NCBI RefSeq assembly: GCF_963676685.1
Contig: NC_092350.1
Span: forward strand, 82,522,001 to 82,586,000
DNA: 64,000 bases
Direction of reading: 5' to 3'
From: Mytilus edulis
Taxonomy: Eukaryota
Below the pieces are notes generated by a model. It was not told the DNA's origin, did not search any database, and saw only the letters and a list, made by a program, of their open reading frames with translations. Shown here piece after piece: positions 2,162 to 63,809 of this stretch; position 1 is the stretch's first letter, and every line of letters begins with the position of its first letter. The position numbers and the translations under genes are program-made.

Positions 2162-2341
2162 ACATTAACGGTACCAATTTTTCTGCACCAGATGCGCATT
2201 TCGACAAATAATGTCTCTTCAGTGATGCTCGTGGCCAAAATATGTAAAATCCAATGCTTATATAAAAGATGAAGAGCTATAATCTAAAAGTTCCAAAAAG
2301 TATAGCCAAATCTGTGAAAGGAATCAGAGCTTTGCATGAGG
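2162..2341 (-). mobile_element. Truncated hammerhead retrozyme, second family
   Basis: Contains the hammerhead at 2185-2228. The body (GAAGAGC..CCAAAAAGT..GCCAAAT) is recognisably related to, but distinct from, the 357-nt family. Confidence 0.7.
2185..2228 (-). ncRNA. Type I minimal hammerhead ribozyme (AUC cleavage triplet)
   Basis: Minus strand: GCAUCA-CUGAAGA-GACA UUAUU UGUC-GAAA-UGCGCA-UC/UGGUGC. The CUGANGA and GAAA cores are intact, helices I and II pair, and helix III is the short palindrome AUGCGCAU. Confidence 0.88.
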
Positions 2342-5300: not shown

Positions 5301-6755
5301 GGGTGTGGACGGATAAGCAGTTCCCGTCCTGTCATTTACATTAATTATCGTTACACTTGCAAATAACAACATATTACACAAATATAGTCGGTTATTTTAC
5401 AATCAACAAAACAAAAGTGGACGGAATCTTAATAAGTGAAAGCAAAAATAGTATACTGCTGTTAAATAGTTACAAATCGTTTTAACTGAAATTAATCCGT
5501 GTCACAAATGATTTAGAAAACTGCGATTGAAATGTATCCTTTTATCAAAACAATATTGTTTTCATAATTTTAACGAAATCAAAGCATTCAATCATATAAA
5601 ACATATCATCTTTAAAACACGTAAAATATGTATGAACAGAAATAGCTGTAAACCTGTAAAAGAAAACATTGATTACATCGGATTTACGGTGTATGTGCCA
5701 AAACATTACGTTTTTTTATGTTGTCGTCATTATTAACTGTTTTACATCGACTGATAAATTGCAATAATCCCTTGGTATATGCTGCTTTTTTATTTATGTG
5801 GTCGTGTAATTCTCTTGGGAAAAACCTATCTACTTTTTTTCGAAATACCATTTTTTTAGGATGAGACGACCAACATGATGATGAACATTTCAAGTGTAAG
5901 ATCATGTGGTTAGACAATGTTATTATTTTCCACCGTGCGGAAGTTAACTGTTTTCTATATCAACGAATAATAAGAACCAACAGACTTAATTTGACCACGA
6001 AGTATACGGTAATAATGTAACATATACAACCGTCAGAATTTAGAGTCAATAACCAAGTGAGATATTTCCACTGACCAGGGACATCAAAAATTATCTTGAT
6101 AAATGTTACGACACAAACGTGATGTGTTGTGGCTACTATAAGGTGTATAATGGAAAATACACTCTTTATAGCATATAAACATCCTGTTAGTGATTCAAAT
6201 CCTCTAATTTAATATCAGGTAGTGTGTCTTTTTCCTGCAAAGTATACTTTGATGAAAAGTTTAAAATTAAAAAAAGAAGAAAATACTTGCTAGTTTTGTT
6301 GGTTTTTTTTTCATATTTAGCCAACACTATTACCTGTTTCGATTTAAGTTATCATTTGTGTTGTCCCCTTCATAGATGTGGTTGTTTTTTCCTTGTAGTT
6401 CTACTGTAAATTGTTCATCCACTGAGGATGAAATTACTATAAATTTCTGAATAAGAAGATTAACATAATCATGAAAATAAAATGTAATAGTGTGAGATCA
6501 GATAGTCATGATTTCCCTGTGCGCATACGTTAACTTGCTATCTCACAGAATAATACAAACCAACAGACAATATCTGGCCATGAGATGACCTGTAATATTG
6601 TTATATATACGATCGTCAGGATTTGGAGTTTCTAACAAAGTTTAATGTTTCTACTGATTTGGGAAACCTAACATTAGCTTGAGGAATTCAAATAATAAAC
6701 TCTTGTGGTCAACCGATCAAGATGTTCTAAAAAATGTGATATGTCATTTTAACAA

Positions 6756-7059
6756 AAAGTAAAAACACAAAAATACTGAACTCCGATGAAAATTCAAAAA
6801 GGAAAATCAAAAATCAAAAGGCAAAATCAAAAGTCCAAACACATCAAACGAATGGATAACAACTGTCATATTCCTGACTTGGTACAGGCATTTTCTAATG
6901 TAGAAAATGGTTGATTGAACCTGGTTTTATAGCTAGCTAAACCTCTCACTTGTATGACAGTCGCATCAAATTCCATTACATTGTCAACGATGCATGAACA
7001 AAACAAACATACTCAAAGAGTAAAAATGTCAAAAATAGGGGTACAACAGTCAATATATA
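6756..7059 (-). mobile_element. Twister-bearing non-autonomous retroelement, family A, with a 6-bp TSD
   Basis: Flanked by TAACAA at 6750-6755 and 7060-7065. It is absent from the paralogous site (~61262-61275, CCATTTTAAAAAGAATG). Homologous copies lie at ~9880-10130(+), ~11325-11690(-), ~49660-49830(-), ~50010-50290(+) and ~56375-56643(+). Confidence 0.85.
6862..6961 (-). ncRNA. Candidate type-P5 twister ribozyme (intact)
   Basis: Minus strand: ACUGUCAUA-CAAG-UGA-GAGGU-UUAGCUAGCUAUAAAACCAGGUUC/AA-UCA-AC-CAUUUUCUA cau UAGAAAAUG-CCUG-UACCAAGU-CAGG-AA-UAUGACAGU. P5 is 9 bp, P2 is UCA/UGA, P3 is 9 bp and P4 is 4 bp. The pseudoknots are ACC/GGU and AC/GU. Predicted cleavage is between 6917 and 6916. 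Confidence 0.8.
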
Positions 7060-10330: not shown

Positions 10331-11434
10331 ATATGACTATTAAGTGTCATGGACAAAAACAATTAGCTAGGTAACTTCAAGAGGAAAATCCAGTTAGTGA
10401 TACCAAGATAAGACCAGATGACAAATGTAATACCGCAGAAAAAACGAAAATCTCATAACCGCATAATATTATCAGTTCTAAGGATTTTGTCCATTACAGT
10501 ATCTAATAGCATCAACTAAGCTTTTCCATAGATAATCAGATAACGGCCTCAGTCTGTGTTATTGATAATCTTGTTACATAATTATGTTTTTAAAAGTAAG
10601 AAATTTACTTAACAGAACAGGTAAACAACTATAACAATAGACAATATCAAGACAACAAGGACATGCAAGGGTAACAAGAAAATAAACGAAAGGAAACATG
10701 TGAATAAAAGCAAAAAAGAATATGAATCAAGAGAGTAGCGCTATATTACACATTATAACAGTAATATAACCGTAGGAAGTTATTTATCGACCTCTAAAAA
10801 TAAACATGTAGTTTTTAATAATGACAAGAAAATTGACCATTCATCTTCCCACGCGTTATTAGTCATATGTGTATAAATACCTCAATTAAATAAAGAAGAA
10901 ATGATAAATAAAAAAAAATAGAAAGAATACGCAGTCCAAAATATTCGTTCATATATGTGATTATCAGAGAAGAATAGATTGAAACCAAACTGCACTTTTT
11001 TTTCAATACGCATAACGCGTTGAGTTTTTTTTACTAGAACTGACAAGAAGAGGCTTTTGATCTGTGTCTTTACTCATGTATGACTTCGAAGATGTTAGAC
11101 TGCAAAAAAAAAAAAGCTTTTTATATTGTCCTATTCCAAATTTTTGATTCTAAGATTTATGTGAATCTAAAAAACGGTTCAAACATGTACTGCTGAAAAA
11201 CCACCGTGCATTTCCTCATATTAGTCTATGTTAAATTTATCCGTTGTTTTTAATTGGCCAGATTGTATCTTTGTGTGCAATCTTTAGTAATAATGCACTC
11301 TCAAGCTTTTAAAATATTCTATAGAAAAAAGTAAAATCACAAAAATACTAAACTTAGAGAAAAATCAATTCGGAAAGTCCATAATCACATGGCAAAATCA
11401 AATAGCAAAACGCATCAAAAACGAATGGACAAGA

Positions 11435-11530
11435 ACTGTCATATTCTTGACTTGGTACAGGCATTTTCAAATGTAGAAAATGATGGATTAAACCTGTTTT
11501 TATAGCGTAAACCCTCTCATTTGATGACAT
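11435..11530 (-). ncRNA. Degenerate type-P5 twister copy (family A)
   Basis: Minus strand: UGUCAU..UGAGAGGG..UUUAAUCCAUCAUUUUC..GAAAAUGCCUGUACCAAGUCAAGAAUAUGACA. There are mismatches in P4 and in both pseudoknots. Confidence 0.6.
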
Positions 11531-12620
11531 TCTCATCAATATCCGTTGTATCTACATTGATGCGTTAACTAAACAGACACAACAAATAAAATAGTCAGAA
11601 TATGGGTACATCAGTCATTATCGTATAACAATTTTAAAAGGAACAATTTAATAGAACACAAAAACATCTATCTACAAACACATTCATTGAATCCCATTAT
11701 AAGAAAAAAAAATGAAATACCCAGGACATGTGTTGATGATTATAATTTTGTTTAATGCAATGAAGTGCAGGAAGAATCCCTACAAATACCAAGTTCAAAG
11801 TAATATTGTTTTACAAACATTTTTCGTATGCAACCGGACTTGACGTACTATGACTTGGTTGTATTACAACTATAGCAATATGCGCTTATCATATCTACCC
11901 ACATAGTATCTTTCTGTTGTGATCATCATACCTATTTAATTTGCATTGAAAAGTGTTTATGAAATTTGAAAATCAGTATGCAAGCGCTTCTATATGTGGT
12001 ACCATAATCGCTTTCTATTTGTAAATGTATGTATATCTTAGAGCGTTGGATGTGAATGTAATTTGTTTGTGTTTTCTCTTTAACTTGGATTTCATGAAAT
12101 AACTAGCAATAACAGAATATATAAATATCTACATTCTTATACAATTTAAAAGAAATCTGTTTCATAAATGAAAACAATGGTTCATCAACATGAATTTAAT
12201 CACGTTAATGATATCGGTTTAATACAGATATGTTTTTCAAAATAAAAAAGCCTATGCAAAAGGACTGAATCATATTACAATGTTCCTTAACATGAAGGTC
12301 ACCATAAAGATTTATCGATAAGCACAAAAGGACTTGCAGTGTTTTAGATGCTTTCGAACTAAGTTTGATTGCATATATTGTTGGCTTTATTAACCAATAT
12401 ATATTTCATTCACGTTCGAATAACAACATTACACATATAAAATTGTGTTTCCGTAACTGCCGAGTCAATATTGAATAACTAATAGAAAGAAAGCATGCAG
12501 TTGTGCAATTAATTAACAGTTGCTGTTTTCCTGGTGACGGACAAAAACACTATTTAAAGTACTAGGTTTCAGTACAAAACCATAGCTTCCCATGATTATC
12601 TTTCATTTTTAATGAGATTG

Positions 12621-12790
12621 CGATCAAAGTAGTTATAAAGGCAAACAAGTACAAAGTTGAAGAGCATAAGAGGATCCACAATTCCCAAAAGTTGTACCAA
12701 ATACGGCTACGGTAACCTGTTCCTGGGATAAGACTATCCTTAGTTTTCGAAAAATTCAAAGTGTTGTAACAGGAAATCTAAACAAAATGA
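12621..12790 (-). mobile_element. Retrozyme body fragment (no hammerhead retained)
   Basis: Aligns with 21598-21770 (CAAAGTTGAAGAGCAT..GGATCC..CCAAATACGGCTA). Confidence 0.7.
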
Positions 12791-13159
12791 AATCCTCAAA
12801 AATAAATAAAATAAATAGAAAACGTATGAACGACTGCTTTTAAATTAATCTAAATGAAAGAAGTGTATGATGGTATCCTTTTAGAACATCTGTTAAAACT
12901 TGAGCATCACAACAGGTGGTACTTGTGTAGTATGATCTGCGTACCCATACACACAACTTGTGAGTATTCCTGTATAGAATTATGTGGCTTAGTTTGTCTG
13001 TTCATTGTCTGTAGTTTTCTATTGATAGTGTTCTTATGTTATTTTCGTCTGATAAGTTTTGAATGTGACTTTTTCGGATGTGCTGCATTTCGTCGGGTTA
13101 TGTAGTGTATTTCGGTTGTTTCCTGTAAATAGTTAATATTTCAGTTTTATCATTTATCT

Positions 13160-13680
13160 TGTGTATAGTCATTTTATAAAATGTACTGTTTGCAAAAGTA
13201 TAAATTATTCTAAATAATAGGGATGTTCTTGTACCTAACAGAAAATCCTGGCCGTTTTTGGCACAACTTTTCAGAACGTTTGGTCCTCAATGTTGTTTAA
13301 CTTTGTACTTGTTTCGGCTTTCAAACGTTTGTATCTGGGCGTCACTAGTAAGTCTCGTGTGGGCAAAATGCACTTCTGGCGTATTAACATTTTAAACTTG
13401 CTGCCTTTTGTTAGCTATTATTCGTATGTTTCTTTGTCAATAATACTCTCCTATTTATTTATATTGTAGTCCTGTAGTGTTGTGTTGTCATTTTAATGTC
13501 ATATTTCACATGGCCATAAAAGAGGGAGGTTTGGCATGCCACAAAACCAGGTTCAACCCACCATTTTGCCTTTGAAAATGTCCTGTACCAAGTCAGGAAT
13601 TTGGTCATTGTTATATTATAGTTCGTTTCTGTGTGTGTTACATTTTAACGTTGGCTTTCCGTTGTGTCGTTTATTTTCTC
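13160..13680 (+). mobile_element. Composite element (family C): retrozyme-derived body, dead hammerhead and twister
   Basis: 13160-13382 aligns to the hammerhead retrozyme sense strand. The hammerhead remnant is at 13339-13382 and the twister at 13510-13608. The 3' part is homologous to 36120-36365(-) and 63810-64000(-). Confidence 0.75.
13510..13608 (+). ncRNA. Candidate type-P5 twister ribozyme (family C, near intact)
   Basis: AUGGCCAUA-AAA-GAGG-GAGGU-UUGGCAUGCCACAAAACCAGGUUC/AA-CCC-AC-CAUUUU..AAAAUG-U-CCUG-UACCAAGU-CAGG-AA-UUUGGUCAU. P5 differs in sequence from family A but still pairs. Predicted cleavage is between 13554 and 13555. Confidence 0.75.
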
Positions 13681-14229
13681 AACATGATTTGATTCAGCAG
13701 ATATCTGTTTGACATTTGATTGATATATATATATATATAAGCAAGCTGACTTTTTTTCCTTAACTCTTGTACTGTCCATAGATGATAAGAACAGTAAACA
13801 GACATATAAACAAAACTGTTTCATTAAGTTCTGTCATAATTTCTTCCTAGAACAAAAGTATTTATGACAAGCAGACGACCTTGATGGTTTATCACACTAT
13901 AGGTTATATGGTACATCACTGTCTTTGATAGCAGATGAAATTTCATTATTTACAACTCGCCTGATAAATCACTGCATAACAACTAGAAAACAATTTGAAT
14001 ATTTTACAATCGTTCCTATTAATTGCTTTTTGTCTTTAGTTTTTACGTGTTCATAATAAAAGAAATTAAAAAAAAAATGTCTGATATCTACAATTAGCGA
14101 CCAAATGACATCTACAATTATAAACCACCGTATGGCCTTCAACAATGAGCAAAGCCATTACCTCATAGTCAGCAATAAAAGGCCCAAAATGACATATGCA
14201 ACACAATTGAAACAAGAAAACTAATAGTC

Positions 14230-15499
14230 AAAAAGAGGGACGAAAGATACCAAAGGGACAATCAAACTCATAAATCTAAAACAAACTGACAACGCCATGG
14301 CTAAAAATGAAAAAGACAAACAGAAAAACAATAGCACACACGACACAACATAGAAAACTAAAGAATAAACAACACGAACCCCACCAAAACCTAGGGGTGA
14401 TCTCAGGTGCTCCGGAAGGGTAAGCAGATCCTGCTCCACATGTGGCACCCGTCGTGTTGATTATGTGATTACAAATCCGATAAAGAGTCTAATTCGGTAA
14501 GTCACATTCATGAAAGGGAAGGGGATTGTAGATACGACGTAAGGAACATATCCGATATCATTTGTGAAACGGTTATTTCATAACGGTCAACCAACTCGTG
14601 ATGGCGTCCGTAAAATTTACGAAAGGATGATTTCAACTTCACAATTTGGAACTCTTGGTTTAATAGCTTCCTTGTGAGCAGTAACCCTCTATCAAGAAAA
14701 TCATGATAGGAAATGCAAGCACGGGAATATCGTATCAATTGGGAGATATATACCCCGTATGCAGGTGCTGCTGGAATGTTGCTACTTAGAAATGGAAAGT
14801 TCACAATTGGAAAGCTGAAATCATCTCTTTTGTCGTAAAGTTTTGTTTTCAACCGACCCTCATTGTCAATTTCTAGATGTAATTCAAGATATGAAGCCGA
14901 CTTAACTGTATCTGTAGTATCCTTTATCTCCAATTCGATGGGATAGATGCGTTCCACATAGTCACCAAATTTTGAATTGTTTAGTGAAAGAACGTCATCT
15001 ATATAGCGAAAAGTAGAGTTAAAGGATATTGCTAACTTCTTATCTTTCTTCCTAAGAAGTTCCTGCATGAAGTCAGCCTCATAATAATAAAGAAACAAGT
15101 CGGCAAGTAGAGGGGCACATTTGTTCCCATTGGGGTGCCGACAGTCTGTTGAAAAACACGTCCTCCGAACGTTACAAATATGTTGTCAATCAAGAAATCA
15201 AGCATCTTGATAATATCGGTTTCAGAGAATTTTTTGTTTGAATGACAGTGATTCTTTATGATGTATCCCTCCCTAAGACAAGATACTTGTATCTACGTTG
15301 ACCATTCTTTTTTATGAAGCAAAGTAATACCAACTCTTTCAATTTGTCTTTTAGTTTGGAATGTGGAATACTTGTGTACAGAGAAGAAAAGTCAAATGTG
15401 TTAATACTGTTACAAGATGAAAGAGAGTTAGATTGTATGTACATGTATTCTAAAAGATCTTTGGAATTTTTAAGTATCCACATCTGATTCACGCCACCT
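14230..15499 (-). mobile_element. 5'-truncated Penelope-like retroelement, Naiad-type (RT at C-terminus, no downstream GIY-YIG)
   Basis: RT coding remnant at 15499-14508, followed by a ~280-nt 3' UTR whose fragments recur at ~10255, ~54190-54400, ~56337-56368, ~60963-61122 and ~62840-62935. Confidence 0.88.
14508..15499 (-). pseudogene. Reverse transcriptase pseudogene fragment (Penelope-like)
   Basis: Motif A TFDFSSLYTSIP, motif B' QQTVGTPMGTN/APLLADLFL, motif C FRYIDD and the PLE thumb region (LYDKRDDFSFPIVNFP...SQLIRYSRAC) are present. Frameshifts occur near 15258 and 15118. The ORF stops right after the thumb. Confidence 0.92.
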
Positions 15500-16613
15500 T
15501 AGTATAAGTTAATTTTAAGGAAAATCAACTTAGAAAATATACCAGGCTTATAAATGTGTACGCTAGACACGTGCTAGGTCAACATATGTTGTAGAGAGGT
15601 CCGCGTCAGTCATAGGGAAAGGACAAATACAAACAAACCATGAGGAACCAAATTCTATAAAATGATTTGTCAAGCTGTAAATATTAGAGTTGAAGTCAAT
15701 AAGATACTATGAATAAATGTAATCAACCAATTTGCTATTAGATGCATTCCAGACTGCAATAAATATTTTAACTTTAACGTGATTTGATAGGTCTGCACAT
15801 ACATAAAGCAGATTCCTCTCAAATTGTATTTATAGACATTGTTTTTGTTCTGTTCATTAGAGAAACGAACATGGCTGCCATATCTTATGAGAAAGTATGT
15901 TCAAGATTTGTCTTGTCTATGGTTGTATATGGTCAATTTGATGTGAAATAGCTATAGATATATAAATGCAAGTTGACTTGATATATTTGTATTTTTAATT
16001 TTGCTGCTGACAATTATTATAATGGATGCATTTGTCTTGTTTTAAGAGTTAGAAATAGAGGATTGAAAAAAAGACAACAGCAGAACGTTTCAGATATAAG
16101 GTATGTTAAAAAATGCTTTGCATCAATAATCAACATATGCTGGATTTTCAACATTTAGCAATCCTTCATCAAATGTAAAGAAGAAAAATGTTTTGCCTAT
16201 CTCATATGCTGCGCTTTTGACAACGTCAGTCATCTCAGTATCATATTGATGAACAAAGAGACAATTGTAATCATGCATTTGAAATTGGCATCACATGAGA
16301 AGCATTACTGTAATTGCGCACGCATATGTCGTAAACATTTATAATCTTATCCAAAAACAATTGATTGCAAATGCTAATATGACTGTTACATGTAACAACC
16401 TAATCGGTGTGATGGCCAAAAACATAATGAGACATGGTTTCGAGAAAGAATGGTTCGCCTTTTTTTTAACAATATCTATTAAAATATATGCAGTATCTAC
16501 TTCACAAAATATTCATGATGTAATATTCTATATACATTACTTGTTTCTCTTAACTTTTACCTTACTGTGCGTGTGTGTGTGCGTGTTCGGCGTATCACAT
16601 TATAAGCCTTTCA

Positions 16614-17303
16614 TAACTGTTTACACTACTTGGTCGATGCCACTACTGGTGGACGTTTTGTCTAAAAGGGTATCATCAGCCCAGTAGTCAGCACGTCGAT
16701 GTTGACATGAATATCAATGAATTGGTAATGTTCATAAAGTCGCTGTTTGCAAAGTATAATTGATTCTAAAAATTAAGGATTTTCTTATCGCAGGCATATA
16801 TTACCTTAGCCGTATTTGGCTACTTTGGAATTTAGGATGCTCAATGCTCGTTCCCTTTATACTTTGTCTTTTAACTATTTTGATCCGAGCGTTACTTAGG
16901 AGATAACTGTATTGTCTTTTAAGCTCTGACGGCATCAATTGGGGATTTGATAGTCGCAAACTAAGTTTACTGGCGACATGTTAGCGGAGAGAGTAAACGG
17001 GTATTTGCGACCATCAAATTCACAATTGATGCCGCCGGAGCTTATAATACAATATTGTTATCTCGATTATAATGAAACTGACAGAAAACAACGTTAAAAC
17101 ATGTGTTTAAAATCTGGCATATGCCGTCTGCGCTTGAGCGTACGTCCCATTGCATCAATTGTCAATTGATGCCATGTAAATAAGTGACGTTATCCAATCA
17201 AAATGAACGTTACAAATGTTGTTGCATTAGAATGATTGTTATAATTAAGACGGAACGCGCGTCTGGCGTTATCAAATCATAAGCCTGGTACCTTTGATAA
17301 CTA
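16614..17303 (+). mobile_element. Hammerhead retrozyme monomer interrupted within the ribozyme core
   Basis: Reverse complement of the 357-nt family. GAGCGTTACT (16887-16896) and AGACGGAACGCGCGTCTGGCGT (~17248-17269) are separated by a 337-bp insertion. Confidence 0.8.
16897..17233. mobile_element. Foldback insertion with two abutting inverted-repeat pairs
   Basis: Long arms at 16900-16960 and 17004-17064. A second pair is ATTATAATGAAAC (17066-17078) and GTTGCATTAGAAT (17221-17233). Boundaries are fixed by the host retrozyme, and there is no TSD longer than 1 bp. Confidence 0.8.
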
Positions 17304-17659
17304 CTAATACATTGAGTGTTTCTGATGTAAGGTGTTCAAGAGGTATGACCAAAGGCAAGTGCAGTTTTCATTGTGTTAACTCAGGTATGTATTTTTCATG
17401 CTATTTCTAATTTATTTGAAGAAAAGTGAATACGAATTTAAGTTTCTCTATACATTGGTAATCAATTACGCAGACATTATTGCTGGCAACAATCAGTTGT
17501 GTTTGCTTGTCCGTAATATATGTTTACACAGTTTCGCTGCTTGATATACATTCTTGTAATGTTTCAAATGCGCCTATTTTAGGTTAAACGTCCAATTGTA
17601 TATATATATAACGGATCCATAAACACCCTTATTTCGAGTGTGAGATTTAACGAACAAGT

Positions 17660-18116
17660 TAAAGTAGGTCCGAGACCACAATTATTTCCTAGTGCCTTTC
17701 TTTTAGAACATAAATGAAAATGAAAAAAATCCCACTTGCGTTTTCTCAATGAAATATTTACAGTGTGTTGTACTACTTTTGTGTCAAATATATCAAAACT
17801 ATAGAAAACTGTATCGGTTCTTACTTAAAATATGGACAATTGTATGCTTAGGACGTCTTGAAATCTTTTGACAGCTTCCGAAGTGCTAATGTTTAACCTT
17901 TTCAGCTGAACGAAATCACTACTTTCCTTTAAAATTCTGGACCCAAATTTTGTTAGTGTAATTTCACCCCCTTACCTGCAATTTGAGGCATCAAACATGG
18001 AGACATAAATTTGGAATTGTTATAAATTTAATTGGAAGTAACCAACTGTCAACACTAGGGACTATATGTGTGAACCAAGAAACTCATTTGACGACAATTC
18101 TGGTCACGGACCAGTA
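17660..18116. mobile_element. MITE-like non-autonomous DNA transposon
   Basis: TIR-like pair GGTCCGAGACCACAATT (17667-17683) and AATTCTGGTCACGGACC (18096-18112), 15/17 match. Confidence 0.65.
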
Positions 18117-21100
18117 GGTTTAATATCAATACACATGGCATGTTTTTTTAAAACAATTTTTAAAATATTAAGTTTGTTTCGGCATTAGTGTTGCCAATAA
18201 GAGTTTGCGTAACGTTTCACGTTTAAGTTTTATAAAGAGTGCTTGTTTTTGTATAAAGAATCCGTTTTGTATACTGATGGATTCCATTTAGATAATAAAG
18301 ATCTTTTGAAGCATATTAGTGTATTGTAAGCGTTTTCCATTGTCATACCATGTTGATCTGTCGCATAGGAATCCATTACATTGCAAAGATATTTGAACAA
18401 AGAAAATAAACATGAGGGTAAAAAATGTCAAAAACATGGGTAGATCAGTTAACATTGTTTTATCATCTGAATCAATATGAAATGAAGCAAATATGTCAAC
18501 AAAGATAAACACACTGCACATATAAAAAGCACATTAGCAATAACGAATGACAATACTATCAAAATTAACAATAGCAGAATAATACAATGACGGGATTTAT
18601 AAGTATCGAGCCACGTCAAATAGAAATTGCGAAATATTGACCAAACCGTAAACAGTTAAATGTACAAAGACACACAAAAGGAATAGCATTACACATTAAA
18701 TCTATTCTTTAAGACCATAGTATATCATCAGTAAGGTTCACCAATCTTACAACTCATTAAGTTTGTTCTATTACCGGAATAATTCAACTAGATTCAGTGC
18801 AAAACAGAATCTAAAAGAACTTTTTCATAATTGGACTTTTTACCTTTTGATTTGAGCGTCACTTGTAGACGAAACATTCGTATATATTCCAAGTATTTAT
18901 GACGCGTATATTATATAAACAAGTTGTATATACATATCCAATTGATATCGATTATAAAGTCGAAAGTCAGCCCCGATATTGCATTATTGTTCTTGAAACC
19001 TTTTTGTTATTATAAATAAACTCACTTTTGCATAAGGAGTTCAACTTTGTTGGTAAAAAATTTAAAACCATAATGAATTACATTTTACATTTATTGTTTT
19101 ATGAAATAAATTCAAGCGTAATTGGTAATACCTCCTGTTCATGTTTAAAGTGTGTATACTTTAGAATTTCGGCTTTATTTCTGATCGGTCCAATATCAAT
19201 CATGTAACCAATAGGTTGCAATGTCAATTAATTAGCTTTATCCATTGATTACATTGGACTTACTACTTTCTCAAAGGAGGCTTAAATACAACATTAATTC
19301 AGACAATTGTATGATAAAGAATTTTGTTTTAATTTTGAAAACTCAATGGAAATCAATTTAACATAATTAATTGACGTTTTATTTAGTTATCGTAATTTTA
19401 TTATTTAATTTGGCAGACCTGATGATAAGATTAATACTATTGGATATACTGTATATAGAAACCAGTATCGATACCATGCTTAACCGTGTGTTTCCATTTG
19501 TCTGTTGATTTTTAAAAGAAATGAAATATATATAGTTACAATTGTCTCCAGGTCTATAAAACACAAACAAACTGAAATAAACATTTTAATATCAACTTAC
19601 GGCACAAAGATACTTTAATAGCGCAATCTTCGTGCAAGTTGCTTATTTTTATAAAATAGCCATAATCAAGCATGTCCGTGCATGGCTATTCAAAGTTTAG
19701 AATGTGTTTCTTTTTTATTAGATCGTCAATGAAGAGGTCGGATTTGTATCTTTGATGATTTCTTACAAAAGATTTTTTTACAAAACTTTTGAGAGACATT
19801 TCTAAAGGTAACTGTATGTCCATGCTAACAAACAATTTAAAGTAGCAAAATAGCAACTGGGACATAAAAACACAAGAATCATCAATTTTCAATTAAAATG
19901 TTGACCTTTGATCTTAAAATCTAAGTTAAACTATCTGATATTTTGTGTTGTTTCACATCAAGAATAAATACTAAAGATGTAAGAAACATATATTTATTAG
20001 TATAAAGGTGTTAGAAACTAAAAAAAAAGACCAACGTTACTACTTTACAATTTTACTTTAGGTTGATTTGACAATAATATTTTTCGATCATATTCTGCTT
20101 AAAATTTTTCTATACTATACTATCATGGAGCAAATAAAAAATAGAAAATCGCAATTTTTATGAAACTTTACATTAAAATAATGACTAATGTCGAAGACTT
20201 TGTCTAAAAAGTACTAGTTTTCAGGAACAGTTCCTAGTAAATCCCAAGTGCACTGTTGGTCCACATCATATTACAATCTAGTTAGCTCTTTCTTCTCCTG
20301 TTGTATTGCATCTTGAAATACCATGATTTATACACAGTAATTACTTCAAAAATGAATGTCTATTATAGCAATCTCATAAAATTTGGGTTGATAAAAAGTT
20401 CTATAACAACAAAGGTTTCAGCACATATTTAATTATATATCGATAGAACAGGATTATGTCGCAATGAAATTACTAGAATGGAATAAAGGTGTTGTAACGT
20501 TGCGTCTATGAAATGTGCCTCTTGATAATAAGATTAACAATGTCGCATAATAGCTGCTAATATACCGCTAGAACATTTGAAGCTTCATTAATTCCAAAAG
20601 GTCCTTTCATTAATAGTTTACTTATTATGATACTTTAACAATGTTTACCGCTTCCGCAAATCCAAAAAGGTAAACATAGTGGAAACAAATATAAAACGAA
20701 ACATAGTTCATAGTTATTACTATTAAAAAACTAACTTATATTTTCTGCATGATCTGTGTTGACATGCACCTCGCCATTCATTGTCTTTTTGATTGTGCTT
20801 GCATTTGTTTTATTTCAGTTTTTATTTTTGTATATTCTGCCACATTGGTGAATGTAACAGTAGACTTGTAAATATTTCCAAGTTAATCTAATAAGAGAAA
20901 AATATAAAACAACTCTTTCAAAAAAATGTCAACTTATTTAGAAAAAAAAACAGTGTCTGTTGCTTTCCTTCGTGTTATAAAGTTATTCTAAACAAAAGCC
21001 CTTTAACTGTACAGGCTTAGAACAGCACCAACGACAATTACTTCCAAGCATTACAATGTCAGCGTTTTCAATTTGAGTCTCTCTATTTGGTATTCTGTTC

Positions 21101-21550
21101 CACCCATATTTGTACATAAAAAAATAATACATGCTATAAGCATGCAGGTTTACAAAAATGAATTAACGCTAGAAATTACAAACTAACACAATACATTTGA
21201 AAACCTAACTATTTAAGTCCGTCATTTTAGTATTACCCTTATCAACAATTGAAGGACTGGAAAGCAATAATCAATCTATTGGTTACTAATTGTAAGCATG
21301 AATTCATGTGCAGAAACAAACTCACTTATTGTTTATTTTAATTTCCAGAATATTTCTACAGAGGATTTTACTGATTTAATATTATGGTTTGAACAAGAAC
21401 AGTAGAAATAAATCAATGTGTCTTTGGCTTTAATATATCTTATTGGTCCGAACATTGTTTTATTTTCAAATTATCTGTTCATTTAAATTGCACATTAGCA
21501 AAAATGTGCATAAATAATAGTTATCAAAAGTACCAGGATTATAATTGTAT

Positions 21551-21594
21551 ACGCCAGACGCACGTTTCGTCTACATAAAACTCATCAGTGACGT
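21551..21594 (-). ncRNA. Type I minimal hammerhead ribozyme
   Basis: Minus strand: ACGUCA-CUGAUGA-GUUU UAUGU AGAC-GAAA-CGUGCG-UC/UGGCGU. Cleavage after GUC, between 21557 and 21556. Confidence 0.88.
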
Positions 21595-21907
21595 TCAGAT
21601 CAAAATAGTTAAAAAGCCAAATCAATACAAAGTTGAAGAGCATTGAGGATCCAAAATTCCAAAAAGTTGTGCCAAATACGGCTAAGGTAATCTACTCCTG
21701 GGGTAAGAAAATCCTTAGTTTTTCGAAAAATTCAAGGTTTTGTAAACAGAAAATTTATATAAAAATGACCATATAATTGATATTCATGTCAACACCGAAG
21801 TGCTGACTACTGGGCTGGTGATACCCTCGGGGAAGAAACGTCCACCAGCAGTGGCATCGACCCAGTGGTGTAAATAGTTATTAAAAGTACCAGGATTATA
21901 ATTTTAT

Positions 21908-21951
21908 ACGCCAGACGCGCGTTTCGTCTACATAAGACTCATCAGTGACGC
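21908..21951 (-). ncRNA. Type I minimal hammerhead ribozyme
   Basis: Minus strand: GCGUCA-CUGAUGA-GUCU UAUGU AGAC-GAAA-CGCGCG-UC/UGGCGU. Helix III is the palindrome ACGCGCGU. Cleavage between 21914 and 21913. Confidence 0.92.
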
Positions 21952-24064
21952 TCAGATCAAACTAGTTAAAAAGCCAAATCAATACAAAGTTGAAAGTTGT
22001 ATTTTTTTTAATAGAAAAACATTTATTACGCTTCAAGATGTAACGAATTATGAACACTTTGCATCAAACAGATACAATTGAAACAATTTTAATTCGGAAC
22101 GATTCACATCAACTTTAATTACAAAACTACTCTTAATGTTTCTGTTACTAGTGTTAAACGTAAATGAGGCAAATGGTTTATTATAATCTGTCAATAACGC
22201 ACGGTATGCATAACATTAAGACAAATTTATAACACACCCACTACATGTAAAAGCAAAATAAAAATGTTTGATTCATTTAAGATAATAAGATGATATTATG
22301 TATGCTGTATTGTCCTCCAATTAAATAGTCGATGGAAAACATTGTCATTTTTGTTGCTCTCTATGAAAACTACAAAATTAGAGTTGATTGTCAAAAAATC
22401 CTTTAACATGTTTTATTCATGTAAAGTATTTAAAGTTCATACTCTATTTTCAACATCATTAACAAATAGTAGATGCTCTGCAAAATTGCAGTAGAATAAG
22501 ACAAGTGTTTGTATATATAAAAAAGGTGGAGAGGGGTCTTGGCGTTGGGTATCTCTATCTATATTTATACGTAAAAAAGGAGGGGATCACTTCGGCACGT
22601 TCCTTTCTTCTTACTTTCACTTGGATGGTGTTAACAGTATGTCGACTGAGCAAGCACGACAGCTTGTAACACATGGATCTATAACGGTCTCCAAATTTTG
22701 GCATTTCTGCGGGAGGAAAACCCGTTTGCTTCAAAGACAAAACTCTACATTCTACATCATATGACAACTATCTCCGACTTTATATTGTTTCAATGGAGTT
22801 GCAACTCAATGCATTCAATTTCTCTCTTAAGCAGTATAGATTCAACTGACTTGTATACAAGCTTAAGCATTACATATTCCATTAATTAGGTATATGGCGC
22901 CATATATCTTAAACATACAGTTGATATGTACGACTAACAAAGTTATCTCAAGGGAACAAAGTTAATTACAGAAGTGAGCTTCTCCTGAAAAAAGGGTTTA
23001 TTCTTTAAATTGTAAGCTATTAGATCCAAGTGCCGATAAATACCAGCAAGTCAATTGAACAATCAATCGGTCAATATGTTGATCGGTGTAGTAGAGTGTT
23101 TGCATTGTGGATGAATAAGGCCTTCTTTTTGAAAGCAGAATACTTATGTTTTTTATTCTAATGGATAAGCGAACGTTTAATATAAATTACAGTGAAACAG
23201 TAAACAACAGCATTGTCATGGTATATAAATGTGTCAACAGGGAGTAATCCCACCGTCCCGATTCATCCACCTGTAAAGTAAAGACTTAAGTAGTAAGTTT
23301 CGTTAATAAGGGTAAGCTTGAGTGTAAGATCAGACCAAACACATAGAAAAAATGTAATTAACAGGAGAAACCAATATCTTTCTTAACGTAATCTAGACAT
23401 GTTCGATCTTTTTGTTTGCATATTTGTTCCGTAACGGGAGCTTACAGTGAAGATTTACACTTTACCCAACACGGAGCTAATTAAACATCCTTATTAATAA
23501 TGCTTAGGAAATCGTCAAATATTAAAGTTGTGCCTTGCAAATCGCACAATGTGGTCTAATTAGATGATTTATGTCAATAGAAGAATTATATCAGGTTTTG
23601 AATATGAAAAAAAAAATCTTTCAGTGTATTTAGAATGTGATCGTTTTCGTTTTCACAATTTAGGATGTCATCAGAGTAAATATGCTAAATCCATTAGAAA
23701 AGAGATGAATACTTTAACAACAAAATGCCAACATAACAAAGTGTCTGAACCCCGAAACACGTAAAGAAAATGCACCAGGGACAGATAGTTATGGTCCAAT
23801 GTTTTATTTCATTACCACGCAATTCATTTTCATAAAAGATTTGTAAATATGAATAACTTACAAACATAATTGTTAAATCTCAACAATGGCGAACCATTTA
23901 CAAAAAGCCTTATAGTTCACCAGGGAATGTTCAGAAAAATATTGGCACAATTTCAGTAAAGTATTTAATCATCTTCCAGATAATTATTCGTATAATTTCT
24001 CCAGAGTGTTGTCTCAGATACTTAAGCTAACTATTGGACTGCTTGTAGCAGGACATTCCAATAT

Positions 24065-24164
24065 NNNNNNNNNNNNNNNNNNNNNNNNNNNNNNNNNNNN
24101 NNNNNNNNNNNNNNNNNNNNNNNNNNNNNNNNNNNNNNNNNNNNNNNNNNNNNNNNNNNNNNNN
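24065..24164. other. Scaffold gap (100 N)
   Basis: Run of exactly 100 N. Confidence 1.
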
Positions 24165-25148
24165 TTTTCCTGGTGACGGACAAAAACACTATTTAAAGTA
24201 CTAGGTTTCAGTACAAAACCATAGCTTCCCATGATTATCTTTCATTTTTAATGAGATTGCGATCAAAGTAGTTATAAAGGCAAACAAGTACAAAGTTGAA
24301 GAGCATAAGAGGATCCACAATTCCCAAAAGTTGTACCAAATACGGCTACGGTAACCTGTTCCTGGGATAAGACTATCCTTAGTTTTCGAAAAATTCAAAG
24401 TGTTGTAACAGGAAATCTAAACAAAATGAAATCCTCAAAAATAAATAAAATAAATAGAAAACGTATGAACGACTGCTTTTAAATTAATCTAAATGAAAGA
24501 AGTGTATGATGGTATCCTTTTAGAACATCTGTTAAAACTTGAGCATCACAACAGGTGGTACTTGTGTAGTATGATCTGCGTACCCATACACACAACTTGT
24601 GAGTATTCCTGTATAGAATTATGTGGCTTAGTTTGTCTGTTCATTGTCTGTAGTTTTCTATTGATAGTGTTCTTATGTTATTTTCGTCTGATAAGTTTTG
24701 AATGTGACTTTTTCGGATGTGCTGCATTTCGTCGGGTTATGTAGTGTATTTCGGTTGTTTCCTGTAAATAGTTAATATTTCAGTTTTATCATTTATCTTG
24801 TGTATAGTCATTTTATAAAATGTACTGTTTGCAAAAGTATAAATTATTCTAAATAATAGGGATGTTCTTGTACCTAACAGAAAATCCTGGCCGTTTTTGG
24901 CACAACTTTTCAGAACGTTTGGTCCTCAATGTTGTTTAACTTTGTACTTGTTTCGGCTTTCAAACGTTTGTATCTGGGCGTCACTAGTAAGTCTCGTGTG
25001 GGCAAAATGCACTTCTGGCGTATTAACATTTTAAACTTGCTGCCTTTTGTTAGCTATTATTCGTATGTTTCTTTGTCAATAATACTCTCCTATTTATTTA
25101 TATTGTAGTCCTGTAGTGTTGTGTTGTCATTTTAATGTCATATTTCAC

Positions 25149-25247
25149 ATGGCCATAAAAGAGGGAGGTTTGGCATGCCACAAAACCAGGTTCAACCCAC
25201 CATTTTGCCTTTGAAAATGTCCTGTACCAAGTCAGGAATTTGGTCAT
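25149..25247 (+). ncRNA. Candidate type-P5 twister ribozyme (duplicate of 13510-13608)
   Basis: Identical sequence in the duplicated segment. Confidence 0.75.
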
Positions 25248-25868
25248 TGTTATATTATAGTTCGTTTCTGTGTGTGTTACATTTTAACGTTGGCTTTCCG
25301 TTGTGTCGTTTATTTTCTCAACATGATTTGATTCAGCAGATATCTGTTTGACATTTGATTGATATATATATATATATAAGCAAGCTGACTTTTTTTCCTT
25401 AACTCTTGTACTGTCCATAGATGATAAGAACAGTAAACAGACATATAAACAAAACTGTTTCATTAAGTTCTGTCATAATTTCTTCCTAGAACAAAAGTAT
25501 TTATGACAAGCAGACGACCTTGATGGTTTATCACACTATAGGTTATATGGTACATCACTGTCTTTGATAGCAGATGAAATTTCATTATTTACAACTCGCC
25601 TGATAAATCACTGCATAACAACTAGAAAACAATTTGAATATTTTACAATCGTTCCTATTAATTGCTTTTTGTCTTTAGTTTTTACGTGTTCATAATAAAA
25701 GAAATTAAAAAAAAAATGTCTGATATCTACAATTAGCGACCAAATGACATCTACAATTATAAACCACCGTATGGCCTTCAACAATGAGCAAAGCCATTAC
25801 CTCATAGTCAGCAATAAAAGGCCCAAAATGACATATGCAACACAATTGAAACAAGAAAACTAATAGTC

Positions 25869-27138
25869 AAAAAGAGGGACGAAAGATACCAAAGGGACAA
25901 TCAAACTCATAAATCTAAAACAAACTGACAACGCCATGGCTAAAAATGAAAAAGACAAACAGAAAAACAATAGCACACACGACACAACATAGAAAACTAA
26001 AGAATAAACAACACGAACCCCACCAAAACCTAGGGGTGATCTCAGGTGCTCCGGAAGGGTAAGCAGATCCTGCTCCACATGTGGCACCCGTCGTGTTGAT
26101 TATGTGATTACAAATCCGATAAAGAGTCTAATTCGGTAAGTCACATTCATGAAAGGGAAGGGGATTGTAGATACGACGTAAGGAACATATCCGATATCAT
26201 TTGTGAAACGGTTATTTCATAACGGTCAACCAACTCGTGATGGCGTCCGTAAAATTTACGAAAGGATGATTTCAACTTCACAATTTGGAACTCTTGGTTT
26301 AATAGCTTCCTTGTGAGCAGTAACCCTCTATCAAGAAAATCATGATAGGAAATGCAAGCACGGGAATATCGTATCAATTGGGAGATATATACCCCGTATG
26401 CAGGTGCTGCTGGAATGTTGCTACTTAGAAATGGAAAGTTCACAATTGGAAAGCTGAAATCATCTCTTTTGTCGTAAAGTTTTGTTTTCAACCGACCCTC
26501 ATTGTCAATTTCTAGATGTAATTCAAGATATGAAGCCGACTTAACTGTATCTGTAGTATCCTTTATCTCCAATTCGATGGGATAGATGCGTTCCACATAG
26601 TCACCAAATTTTGAATTGTTTAGTGAAAGAACGTCATCTATATAGCGAAAAGTAGAGTTAAAGGATATTGCTAACTTCTTATCTTTCTTCCTAAGAAGTT
26701 CCTGCATGAAGTCAGCCTCATAATAATAAAGAAACAAGTCGGCAAGTAGAGGGGCACATTTGTTCCCATTGGGGTGCCGACAGTCTGTTGAAAAACACGT
26801 CCTCCGAACGTTACAAATATGTTGTCAATCAAGAAATCAAGCATCTTGATAATATCGGTTTCAGAGAATTTTTTGTTTGAATGACAGTGATTCTTTATGA
26901 TGTATCCCTCCCTAAGACAAGATACTTGTATCTACGTTGACCATTCTTTTTTATGAAGCAAAGTAATACCAACTCTTTCAATTTGTCTTTTAGTTTGGAA
27001 TGTGGAATACTTGTGTACAGAGAAGAAAAGTCAAATGTGTTAATACTGTTACAAGATGAAAGAGAGTTAGATTGTATGTACATGTATTCTAAAAGATCTT
27101 TGGAATTTTTAAGTATCCACATCTGATTCACGCCACCT
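25869..27138 (-). mobile_element. Naiad-type Penelope-like element with RT pseudogene (duplicate of 14230-15499)
   Basis: Identical ORF fragments at 26147-26737 and 26895-27131. Confidence 0.88.
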
Positions 27139-28252
27139 TAGTATAAGTTAATTTTAAGGAAAATCAACTTAGAAAATATACCAGGCTTATAAATGTGTAC
27201 GCTAGACACGTGCTAGGTCAACATATGTTGTAGAGAGGTCCGCGTCAGTCATAGGGAAAGGACAAATACAAACAAACCATGAGGAACCAAATTCTATAAA
27301 ATGATTTGTCAAGCTGTAAATATTAGAGTTGAAGTCAATAAGATACTATGAATAAATGTAATCAACCAATTTGCTATTAGATGCATTCCAGACTGCAATA
27401 AATATTTTAACTTTAACGTGATTTGATAGGTCTGCACATACATAAAGCAGATTCCTCTCAAATTGTATTTATAGACATTGTTTTTGTTCTGTTCATTAGA
27501 GAAACGAACATGGCTGCCATATCTTATGAGAAAGTATGTTCAAGATTTGTCTTGTCTATGGTTGTATATGGTCAATTTGATGTGAAATAGCTATAGATAT
27601 ATAAATGCAAGTTGACTTGATATATTTGTATTTTTAATTTTGCTGCTGACAATTATTATAATGGATGCATTTGTCTTGTTTTAAGAGTTAGAAATAGAGG
27701 ATTGAAAAAAAGACAACAGCAGAACGTTTCAGATATAAGGTATGTTAAAAAATGCTTTGCATCAATAATCAACATATGCTGGATTTTCAACATTTAGCAA
27801 TCCTTCATCAAATGTAAAGAAGAAAAATGTTTTGCCTATCTCATATGCTGCGCTTTTGACAACGTCAGTCATCTCAGTATCATATTGATGAACAAAGAGA
27901 CAATTGTAATCATGCATTTGAAATTGGCATCACATGAGAAGCATTACTGTAATTGCGCACGCATATGTCGTAAACATTTATAATCTTATCCAAAAACAAT
28001 TGATTGCAAATGCTAATATGACTGTTACATGTAACAACCTAATCGGTGTGATGGCCAAAAACATAATGAGACATGGTTTCGAGAAAGAATGGTTCGCCTT
28101 TTTTTTAACAATATCTATTAAAATATATGCAGTATCTACTTCACAAAATATTCATGATGTAATATTCTATATACATTACTTGTTTCTCTTAACTTTTACC
28201 TTACTGTGCGTGTGTGTGTGCGTGTTCGGCGTATCACATTATAAGCCTTTCA

Positions 28253-28942
28253 TAACTGTTTACACTACTTGGTCGATGCCACTACTGGTGGACGTTTTGT
28301 CTAAAAGGGTATCATCAGCCCAGTAGTCAGCACGTCGATGTTGACATGAATATCAATGAATTGGTAATGTTCATAAAGTCGCTGTTTGCAAAGTATAATT
28401 GATTCTAAAAATTAAGGATTTTCTTATCGCAGGCATATATTACCTTAGCCGTATTTGGCTACTTTGGAATTTAGGATGCTCAATGCTCGTTCCCTTTATA
28501 CTTTGTCTTTTAACTATTTTGATCCGAGCGTTACTTAGGAGATAACTGTATTGTCTTTTAAGCTCTGACGGCATCAATTGGGGATTTGATAGTCGCAAAC
28601 TAAGTTTACTGGCGACATGTTAGCGGAGAGAGTAAACGGGTATTTGCGACCATCAAATTCACAATTGATGCCGCCGGAGCTTATAATACAATATTGTTAT
28701 CTCGATTATAATGAAACTGACAGAAAACAACGTTAAAACATGTGTTTAAAATCTGGCATATGCCGTCTGCGCTTGAGCGTACGTCCCATTGCATCAATTG
28801 TCAATTGATGCCATGTAAATAAGTGACGTTATCCAATCAAAATGAACGTTACAAATGTTGTTGCATTAGAATGATTGTTATAATTAAGACGGAACGCGCG
28901 TCTGGCGTTATCAAATCATAAGCCTGGTACCTTTGATAACTA
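28253..28942 (+). mobile_element. Interrupted retrozyme with foldback insertion at 28536-28872 (duplicate)
   Basis: Identical to 16614-17303. Confidence 0.8.
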
Positions 28943-29298
28943 CTAATACATTGAGTGTTTCTGATGTAAGGTGTTCAAGAGGTATGACCAAAGGCAAGTG
29001 CAGTTTTCATTGTGTTAACTCAGGTATGTATTTTTCATGCTATTTCTAATTTATTTGAAGAAAAGTGAATACGAATTTAAGTTTCTCTATACATTGGTAA
29101 TCAATTACGCAGACATTATTGCTGGCAACAATCAGTTGTGTTTGCTTGTCCGTAATATATGTTTACACAGTTTCGCTGCTTGATATACATTCTTGTAATG
29201 TTTCAAATGCGCCTATTTTAGGTTAAACGTCCAATTGTATATATATATAACGGATCCATAAACACCCTTATTTCGAGTGTGAGATTTAACGAACAAGT

Positions 29299-29755
29299 TA
29301 AAGTAGGTCCGAGACCACAATTATTTCCTAGTGCCTTTCTTTTAGAACATAAATGAAAATGAAAAAAATCCCACTTGCGTTTTCTCAATGAAATATTTAC
29401 AGTGTGTTGTACTACTTTTGTGTCAAATATATCAAAACTATAGAAAACTGTATCGGTTCTTACTTAAAATATGGACAATTGTATGCTTAGGACGTCTTGA
29501 AATCTTTTGACAGCTTCCGAAGTGCTAATGTTTAACCTTTTCAGCTGAACGAAATCACTACTTTCCTTTAAAATTCTGGACCCAAATTTTGTTAGTGTAA
29601 TTTCACCCCCTTACCTGCAATTTGAGGCATCAAACATGGAGACATAAATTTGGAATTGTTATAAATTTAATTGGAAGTAACCAACTGTCAACACTAGGGA
29701 CTATATGTGTGAACCAAGAAACTCATTTGACGACAATTCTGGTCACGGACCAGTA
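29299..29755. mobile_element. MITE-like element (duplicate of 17660-18116)
   Basis: Identical sequence in the duplicated segment. Confidence 0.65.
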
Positions 29756-32700: not shown

Positions 32701-33154
32701 GCGTTTTCAATTTGAGTCTCTCTATTTGGTATTCTGTTCCACCCATATTTGTACATAAAAAAATAATACATGCTATAAGCATGCAGGTTTACAAAAATGA
32801 ATTAACGCTAGAAATTACAAACTAACACAATACATTTGAAAACCTAACTATTTAAGTCCGTCATTTTAGTATTACCCTTATCAACAATTGAAGGACTGGA
32901 AAGCAATAATCAATCTATTGGTTACTAATTGTAAGCATGAATTCATGTGCAGAAACAAACTCACTTATTGTTTATTTTAATTTCCAGAATATTTCTACAG
33001 AGGATTTTACTGATTTAATATTATGGTTTGAACAAGAACAGTAGAAATAAATCAATGTGTCTTTGGCTTTAATATATCTTATTGGTCCGAACATTGTTTT
33101 ATTTTCAAATTATCTGTTCATTTAAATTGCACATTAGCAAAAATGTGCATAAAT

Positions 33155-33633
33155 AATAGTTATCAAAAGTACCAGGATTATAATTGTATACGCCAGACGC
33201 ACGTTTCGTCTACATAAAACTCATCAGTGACGTTCAGATCAAAATAGTTAAAAAGCCAAATCAATACAAAGTTGAAGAGCATTGAGGATCCAAAATTCCA
33301 AAAAGTTGTGCCAAATACGGCTAAGGTAATCTACTCCTGGGGTAAGAAAATCCTTAGTTTTTCGAAAAATTCAAGGTTTTGTAAACAGAAAATTTATATA
33401 AAAATGACCATATAATTGATATTCATGTCAACACCGAAGTGCTGACTACTGGGCTGGTGATACCCTCGGGGAAGAAACGTCCACCAGCAGTGGCATCGAC
33501 CCAGTGGTGTAAATAGTTATTAAAAGTACCAGGATTATAATTTTATACGCCAGACGCGCGTTTCGTCTACATAAGACTCATCAGTGACGCTCAGATCAAA
33601 CTAGTTAAAAAGCCAAATCAATACAAAGTTGAA
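33155..33633 (-). mobile_element. Hammerhead retrozyme, 1.3 monomers (duplicate); ribozymes at 33190-33233 and 33547-33590
   Basis: Identical to 21516-21994. Confidence 0.92.
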
Positions 33634-63559: not shown

Positions 63560-63797
63560 TAGTTGTAAATGGCTTTGAATTAGCTGTCAGATAACTGCAA
63601 GTACTCTCAGATCAGTTCCTAGTGTCTTTTTGTTGTTGGGATGTACAAGTACCCGGCCATGTCCACTTGCATTTTTGTCCATCTGATGATATAAGCTTTG
63701 TTCAACTTATTTGTATAGTTCGTTCTCATGTTGTACTGTTATACCACAGTCCCAGGTTAGGAGGAGGGTTGGGATCCCGCTAACATGTTCAACCCGC
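63560..63797 (+). mobile_element. Family B element ending inside its twister (5' half only)
   Basis: CAGGTTAGGAG-GAGGG-TTGGGATCCCGCTAACATGTTC/AACCCGC, then an abrupt switch to an inverted family C copy. Confidence 0.65.
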
Positions 63798-63809
63798 AAC
63801 ACTACGACA

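Follow-up and report, generated by a model that had tools for sequence, protein, structure and literature searches.

Twister-like motifs with two palindromes in place of stem P1 in Naiad retroelements of mussels and clams

Naiad Penelope-like retroelements of the mussel Mytilus edulis carry a twister-like motif, predicted to cut itself, in which two palindromes stand in place of stem P1. We propose, giving the idea about an even chance of being right, that these palindromes pair two RNA copies and that this pairing switches on, or strongly speeds, the predicted self-cut in tandem transcripts. The starting point was the first-pass annotation of a 64,000-nucleotide stretch of the genome (the whole stretch analysed, hereafter the window), which had reported a different palindrome in each of three twister families and had suggested that such ribozymes may work as dimers, so that only tandem or multimeric transcripts would be cut.

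The host element

According to the presence of a GIY-YIG motif N-terminal to the reverse transcriptase (RT), of a DKA motif and of a partial tandem arrangement with pseudo-LTRs, the host element is a Naiad; these features and the inverted copies are shared with the Naiads described in PMC8557442. The first-pass annotation had recognized neither this host nor the second palindrome described below. In the window, the family-A motif belongs to a solo, 5'-truncated 3' end of such an element (6754..7056, minus strand), which is 99.0% identical over 303 nt to the end of the tandem Naiad at locus L107 on its 3' side and at whose limits (6754/7056) the reads cease matching. The 3' end of a family-A2 Naiad with a decayed twister-like fold (11323..11649, minus strand) and a Naiad-type RT fragment of another family (14511..15185, minus strand) are also present.

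The motif is placed within its element by several tandem copies found elsewhere in the genome. In L071, two family-D copies lie 3,968 nt apart, and the interval between them holds an N-terminal GIY-YIG, the DKA motif and an RT whose frame contains a TGA; L107 and L108 harbor the family-A motif in both repeats around an N-terminal GIY-YIG and RT, and L109 the family-C motif in both repeats around an RT fragment. The motif-bearing direct repeats are 1,555 nt (L107), 384 nt (L108) and 558 nt (L071) long, and the motif lies on the coding strand in both repeats of the tandem Naiads. Families A, C and D are in this way tied to an RT, family A2 was so once, and families B and C2 are without a direct tie. 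Pfam returned no family for five RT fragments, and a PDB search with RT fragments gave nothing useful. Seven of the first 100 exact family-A matches, counted by eye, have an exact partner on the same strand within 6 kb.

With a single exact pattern, at least 23,432 matches were obtained in this genome of 1.37 Gb, and the sorting of 158 copies from 127 fetched sequences (130 copies assigned) revealed at least six families rather than the three originally claimed. Family A matches, by eye, the 3' end of Naiad_Mgal. Of the 54 published Naiad consensi (PMC8557442 supplement; most names inferred from the order of the file), 17 were inspected at their 3' ends: five have the twister fold (Mgal, which corresponds to family A, Bpla, Mphi, Scon and Mmer), nine have another motif (five pteriomorph bivalves and four hemichordate elements) and three have neither. 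PMC8557442 reports no canonical hammerhead in Naiads, and the word "twister" is absent from its main text; here, the twister-like fold or the motif called motif II below fills that place.

Three further observations concern the structure of these elements. The in-frame TGA of family D is located at positions 5311-5313 of L071, just after the DKA motif, and SECIS matches lie 3' of the RT in the related loci L187, L194 and L197, one of them over the gathering score; clams are known to have selenoprotein Naiads, and family D is probably one of this group. In L011-L013 (207-nt period) and L110-L112 (1.3-1.8-kb period), units that carry the twister are repeated in short tandem arrays with no RT motif in between, and their layout suggests retrozyme-like, non-autonomous derivatives endowed with a twister. 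Finally, inverted pairs of Naiad ends occur in L113, L114, L115 and L116, a typical Penelope insertion structure.

The twister-like fold

The family-A fold (6861..6962, minus strand) has the type-P5 order: P5 and P2' are followed by the GA at 6945-6944, by T1' (6943-6941) and by the palindromes, the predicted cut falls between 6917 and 6916, and past the cut come P2, T2 (6911-6910), P3 (6909-6889), P4/L4 (6888-6873) and P5'. The family-C fold occupies 13510..13607 on the plus strand, with the predicted cut between 13554 and 13555. Position labels follow the rice-twister numbering. The twister anatomy recognized in the first-pass annotation was recovered, in the order P5, P2', GA, T1', a 21-25-nt segment, Y^AA, P2, T2, P3, P4, L4 and P5', which is that of type-P5 twister elements (PMC5408937). 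The motif shares with the type-P5 twister (PMC5408937, Rfam RF02684) this order, the elements P2, P3, P4, L4 and P5, the two pseudoknots, the Y^AA cut motif and the GA before T1'; it differs from it in having two palindromes, of 6-12 and 8-12 nt, in place of P1, and in the absence of any score with the Rfam models.

In nine aligned copies, 93.9% of the 99 cells of the core are paired, and both T1 and P2 show double changes; a value as high was reached in four of 500 shuffles, and slid registers gave 20-42%. T2 is paired at 100%, T1 at 89% with a U-A/G-C change, P4 in all nine copies, and P2, which often consists of two pairs and a bulge, at 83% with one double change. Variants of P4 and P2 also occur in the metagenome loci, where T2 appears as AC/GU, GC/GU and CC/GG, and more changes in T1, T2, P2 and P4 come from the same loci and from the published clam and mussel consensi (the latter judged by eye); the third T1 pair is mismatched in several clam-type loci. 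The L1/L4 bases N^AA, GA and U-NNN-AA-G are invariant columns of the alignment.

The idea that the palindrome forms the loop of a P1 hairpin did not hold, as the canonical P1 register pairs at 0-1 of six positions in all six family representatives. P1 is listed as essential in the twister consensus, even though it has been reported to be dispensable, and it is because of its absence within one molecule that we call the motif a twister-like variant, for which cleavage is predicted. Genome searches with the Rfam models twister-P5 (RF02684) and twister-P3 (RF03154) retrieved no match; they show little, since none was retrieved from any of 14 control genomes either. Three full Rfam scans, the sole route that covered twister-P1, gave no twister match. 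On the strength of the core and its compensated changes, we nevertheless consider it very probable that the motif is a self-cleaving twister.

Families A and D are expressed or at least present in RNA libraries. Their reads, from about 6% of one raw-read run, span the site of the predicted cut, and read ends do not accumulate there; this is a weak check, the library being fragmented and the copies mostly old and solo. The absence of cut ends fits a poor cutting of single copies and proves nothing.

The palindromes and their compensation

The segment replacing P1 holds two palindromes, the first beginning 1-2 bases past T1' and the second, directly ahead of the predicted cut, ending 0-1 base before it. 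In the family-A copy of the window (minus strand), palindrome 1 is a perfect 10-nt sequence at 6930..6939, with predicted energies of 0.0 kcal/mol as a hairpin and -14.0 kcal/mol as a homoduplex, and palindrome 2 (6918..6926) has a 4+1+4 layout, its last base being one short of the predicted cut. The family-C copy (plus strand) has a perfectly self-complementary palindrome 1 at 13532..13541 and palindrome 2 at 13545..13553. In the family-B copy (63745..63804, plus strand), the two palindromes lie at 63771-63778 and 63782-63789.

All five strings of the window that had been claimed to be self-complementary proved to be perfect palindromes, correctly placed. The order in which GAGGN precedes the palindrome was also seen, with the difference that the family-A copy lies on the minus strand and reads from 6945 downward. 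As for family B, the palindrome at 63771 is perfect, but the copy is not a whole ribozyme: it is 3'-truncated past T2 and has no P3, P4 and L4, the similarity to family B stopping at about 63804, where a minus-strand family-C remnant starts.

The family-C copy recurs 11,639 bases downstream, inside a near-identical duplication flanking the 100-N gap at 24065-24164, and may therefore have been counted twice in the window. The duplication itself is in tandem and about 11.5 kb long (12526-24064 and 24165-35705, on either side of the gap); it is possibly an assembly artefact. Elsewhere in the window, a 75-nt inverted repeat with a 7-nt loop (59605-59761), whose matches to miRNA families are weak and far below threshold, is probably a small foldback element.

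Perfect palindromes arise in the window at a chance rate per position of 0.0027 (10-mers) and 0.0075 (8-mers). When each element was shuffled, p ranged from 0.002 to 0.058 for palindrome 1 (17 of 17 elements) and from 0.006 to 0.041 for palindrome 2 (16 of 17). This set of 17 comprises six consensus-like family representatives and 11 metagenome loci, the latter chosen among 80 loci that had been taken by RT similarity (the best 80 of 349) and searched with a descriptor that demands the conserved unpaired letters and is blind to the palindrome segment, so that circularity in counting the palindromes is avoided. The descriptor found 14 loci (0.49 Mb) with a sense-strand match 3' of the RT, two misplaced matches being dropped, and two matches in 2.47 Mb of shuffled sequence; three redundant loci were then left out. 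Palindrome 1 is present in all 14 loci, with at least 8 nt in 13 of them; palindrome 2 is clean in 12, has a two-base centre in one and is imperfect in one.

The sequences of the palindromes change, and their symmetry is kept. Palindrome 1 has 16 different sequences and eight central tetramers among the 17 elements, and its central dinucleotide is CG in five, GC in five, AT in four and TA in three, with no non-complementary case; the elements are related, so that these counts are not independent draws. Several of the changes are nevertheless seen directly. Two loci, L167 and L172, share 98.5% identity over 2,412 nt, and a change from GC to AT at the central pair makes up two of their 27 mismatches. 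When the centre of the family-C palindrome was left free, the first 100 of 3,961 matches had AT in 87 cases, TA in 11 and another dinucleotide in two. Families D and B differ by an A-U versus G-C change in the palindrome stem, and palindrome 2 changes at both inner (C-G, A-U) and outer pairs. Compensation in palindrome 1 was counted by parsing rather than on the alignment because MAFFT misaligns this palindrome in families B and D. Predicted energies of palindrome 1 in the 17 elements range from 0 to -2.1 kcal/mol for hairpins and from -10.9 to -21.1 kcal/mol for homoduplexes.

The first-pass annotation had pointed to the conservation of palindromicity in subfamilies as a check of its idea; it is preserved, central pair included, in different subfamilies and species. 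That pair cannot form in a hairpin and yet stays complementary, so that pairing between RNA copies is well supported; compensation at pairs impossible in a hairpin is also what an obligate dimer would be expected to leave. Two-strand pairing is the simplest reading of this pattern, and we hold with good confidence that the palindromes pair between RNA copies.

Motif II

The window contains an unrelated conserved 3' motif, here called motif II (14406..14451, minus strand), of the Naiad family to which the RT fragment at 14511..15185 belongs; it includes a 10-nt palindrome (14436-14445) and a 6-nt one. The window also contains its duplicate copy (26045-26090, minus strand). Motif II has 9,471 matches in this genome and lies 3' of the RT in 24 of the 80 metagenome loci (L131-L154 and others), none of which is among the 14 twister loci; 42 loci have neither motif, and some of these may end too early. 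In 23 of 27 rows, an even palindrome of at least 8 nt occupies a fixed place, its sequence taking many forms; a second palindrome, of 6 nt, is found in most rows.

Rfam gave no ribozyme match for four loci holding motif II. Its layout, compared by eye with those of hammerhead, HDV-like, pistol and twister-sister ribozymes, fits none of them; the comparison layouts were taken in part from PMC11620745. On an RT tree of 38 rows, the twister/motif II label needs three changes, of which the starred branches force one, which suggests an exchange of modules between twister and motif II. We regard motif II as a candidate new ribozyme or dimer signal, and its existence raised, in our evaluation, the odds that pairing is a general need of Naiads.

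Hammerheads of the window

In the window, Rfam revealed five hammerheads of type I with E<=0.0015 and scores under the gathering threshold. Two type I hammerheads stand in tandem at a distance of 357 bases and form a retrozyme-like unit at 21551..21951 (minus strand), and the one at 21908-21951 has a palindromic helix III; a type I hammerhead-like motif of a second family (2185..2230, minus strand), which has no Rfam row at E<=1, has a palindromic helix III at 2192-2199. The palindromes that the first-pass annotation had placed in helix III of the hammerheads are perfect, and of 21 intact hammerhead copies fetched, 19 have a palindromic helix III; the analogy that it drew from them, i.e., a palindromic helix III and action as a dimer, is in print (PMC4209133). 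A mussel hammerhead, however, was reported to cleave itself at about 0.1 per min when a single genomic repeat had been cloned (PMC7229834), so that the mussel hammerhead, too, may not need a dimer.

A decayed hammerhead frame (13339..13382, plus strand) lies 143 nt upstream of the family-C twister. Such a frame was found 134-154 nt upstream of the twister in 16 of 40 family-C/C2 copies, with the core intact in none of the 16; core changes shared by several copies suggest that the hammerhead of a retrozyme was captured and then decayed within the master element.

Relation to known systems

The closest parallel is offered by the type I hammerheads of Penelope elements with a palindromic helix III, which work as dimers (PMC4209133, PMC6765202) and for whose elements a circular template has been proposed (PMC4209133). 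As in those elements, the ribozyme lies in both pseudo-LTRs and on the coding strand, and the stem beside the active site is reduced to a palindrome; the catalytic fold is different, and the Naiad motif has two longer, family-specific palindromes instead of one of 2-8 nt. The twisters of the Schistosoma LINE Perere-3 (PMC8501958) resemble the Naiad motif in their missing or weak P1 and in being tied to a retroelement, as are the RTE twisters announced as in preparation in PMC7761336. Unlike the Naiad motif, Perere-3 and RTE twisters lie at the 5' end of non-LTR elements, are of type P1 and have their P1 completed by the target site; PMC8501958 makes no mention of a palindrome or dimer for the Perere-3 twisters. 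Bivalve type-P1 twister candidates were added by PMC11662667. In the literature searched, which covered sources outside subscription, we found no published account of a palindrome-paired twister in Naiads.

A palindrome-mediated, strand-swapped dimer has reportedly been seen in a crystal of the hatchet ribozyme. This resembles the arrangement considered here, in that a small ribozyme swaps strands through a palindrome; it differs in concerning another class and in being seen in a crystal rather than compensated in evolution.

Does cutting depend on the pairing?

The weakness of P1 claimed in the first-pass annotation was found, and it is no argument for a need of dimers, since in other twisters P1 is dispensable: twisters without it cut at an almost wild-type rate (PMC5408937), a result termed inefficient in PMC8501958, and in a screen of 2,625 candidates imperfections of P1 entailed no loss of cleavage, while flaws in the pseudoknots lowered it (PMC11662667). 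We also considered a self-inhibition of the monomer, palindrome 2 masking T1'. In predicted folds, this effect is not clearly above that of shuffled segments (median fraction 0.15, with a value of 0.1 or less in three of the 17 elements). Bases of T1' are, moreover, paired in the best predicted homodimer of 16 of the 17. On balance, we give an even or marginally better chance to the possibility that pairing raises cleavage substantially.

If it does, the following steps might be envisaged. A transcript running through two repeats would bring two motifs together, and the exchange of one palindrome would give a strand-swapped dimer, in which each core combines the 5' half of one copy with a 3' half contributed by its partner, and the palindrome-1 duplex would stack beneath T1 in the manner of P1. 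Cuts at both repeats would free a unit-length RNA, which would probably be ligated to a circle; a circle is proposed because genomic copies end about 160 nt (family A) to 280 nt (family D) beyond the predicted cut and would thus derive from a template RNA that was uncut at the site. A motif present once, in a circle or in a host transcript, would cut poorly and stay largely uncut, and single copies are the great majority. An arrangement in which both palindromes pair between the same two intact cores was ranked lower, because, by reasoning, two closed loops would interlock.

The strongest rival, tentative but of real weight, is that the twister cuts as a monomer and that the palindromes promote dimerisation for some other step by which Naiads transpose, such as the holding of two RNAs or of two cut ends for ligation, RNP assembly or template jumping. 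The dimer-initiation site of retroviruses is the natural comparison. Its main support, which equally weighs against the explanation that we prefer, is that the unrelated motif II of other Naiads has the same two-palindrome layout at the same place without a twister core, so that pairing may serve the element rather than the core; the dispensability of P1 elsewhere, whereby a monomer could cut, points the same way. The family selectivity of the palindrome-1 duplexes would also suit such a signal, a family's own duplex having -12 to -18 kcal/mol and most cross-family ones 0 to -6, apart from the cross pairs among A, C2 and C, which reach about -11.5 to -11.8 kcal/mol (the row of family B comes from a damaged copy). 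Nevertheless, both palindromes sit on the strands flanking the active site, abutting T1' and the cut, as a pure signal need not do, and the hammerhead precedent, from the same class of elements, links the palindrome to cleavage.

It appears improbable that the palindromes exert their effect on DNA, in fold-back priming, in the pairing of cDNA strands or in the formation of the inverted copies typical of Penelope insertions, the RNA fold merely tolerating them. Self-complementarity holds for DNA too, and inverted copy pairs such as those of L113, L114, L115 and L116 are common; however, G-U pairs lengthen or interrupt several of the palindromes (family B, L130, L187, Naiad_Bpla), which suits RNA.

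Slightly less probable still is that two short intramolecular hairpins replace P1, their symmetry deriving from two-base loops or mutational bias. Outer pairs would covary in a hairpin as well, and template switching is known to correct quasi-palindromes, which would speak in its favor. The central pair is impossible in a hairpin, though, and all four complementary dinucleotides and no other occupy it in the 17 elements; moreover, the predicted hairpins are near 0 kcal/mol, and the P3 loops of the same elements are, by eye, mostly asymmetric. Least probable of all is a protein-binding or dimerising 3' structure that resembles a twister without cutting, a view with which the missing Rfam match and the RNA reads without cut ends would agree, and which is opposed by the recurrence of the AA after the cut, of the GA before T1' and of the U and AA of L4 in mussels, clams and metagenome loci, by the compensated T1, T2, P2 and P4 of those loci, and by the 14 correctly placed descriptor matches in 0.49 Mb against the two in 2.47 Mb of shuffles, these letters being demanded by the descriptor.

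Implications

A broader scenario, which we offer as a speculation with the odds clearly against it, is that the Naiads of bivalves and hemichordates use exchangeable modules at their 3' repeat, either the twister or motif II, the latter being a new self-cleaving class, and that the two palindromes gate both modules as family-specific keys, so that pairing, cutting and circularising would be confined to RNAs of one family. Motif II offers itself as a candidate for another ribozyme.

Many invertebrate genomes are dominated by Naiads, which have been described as doing well although they lack the hammerhead found in other Penelope-like elements (PMC8557442); this was taken to suggest that the ribozyme could be no more than a passenger. 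A twister at the place of the hammerhead, reshaped towards a like use of palindromes, speaks for a role of ribozyme processing and RNA pairing in the way Naiads move. If cutting does depend on the pairing of two copies, as we propose, the Naiad motif would be a naturally dimer-gated twister.
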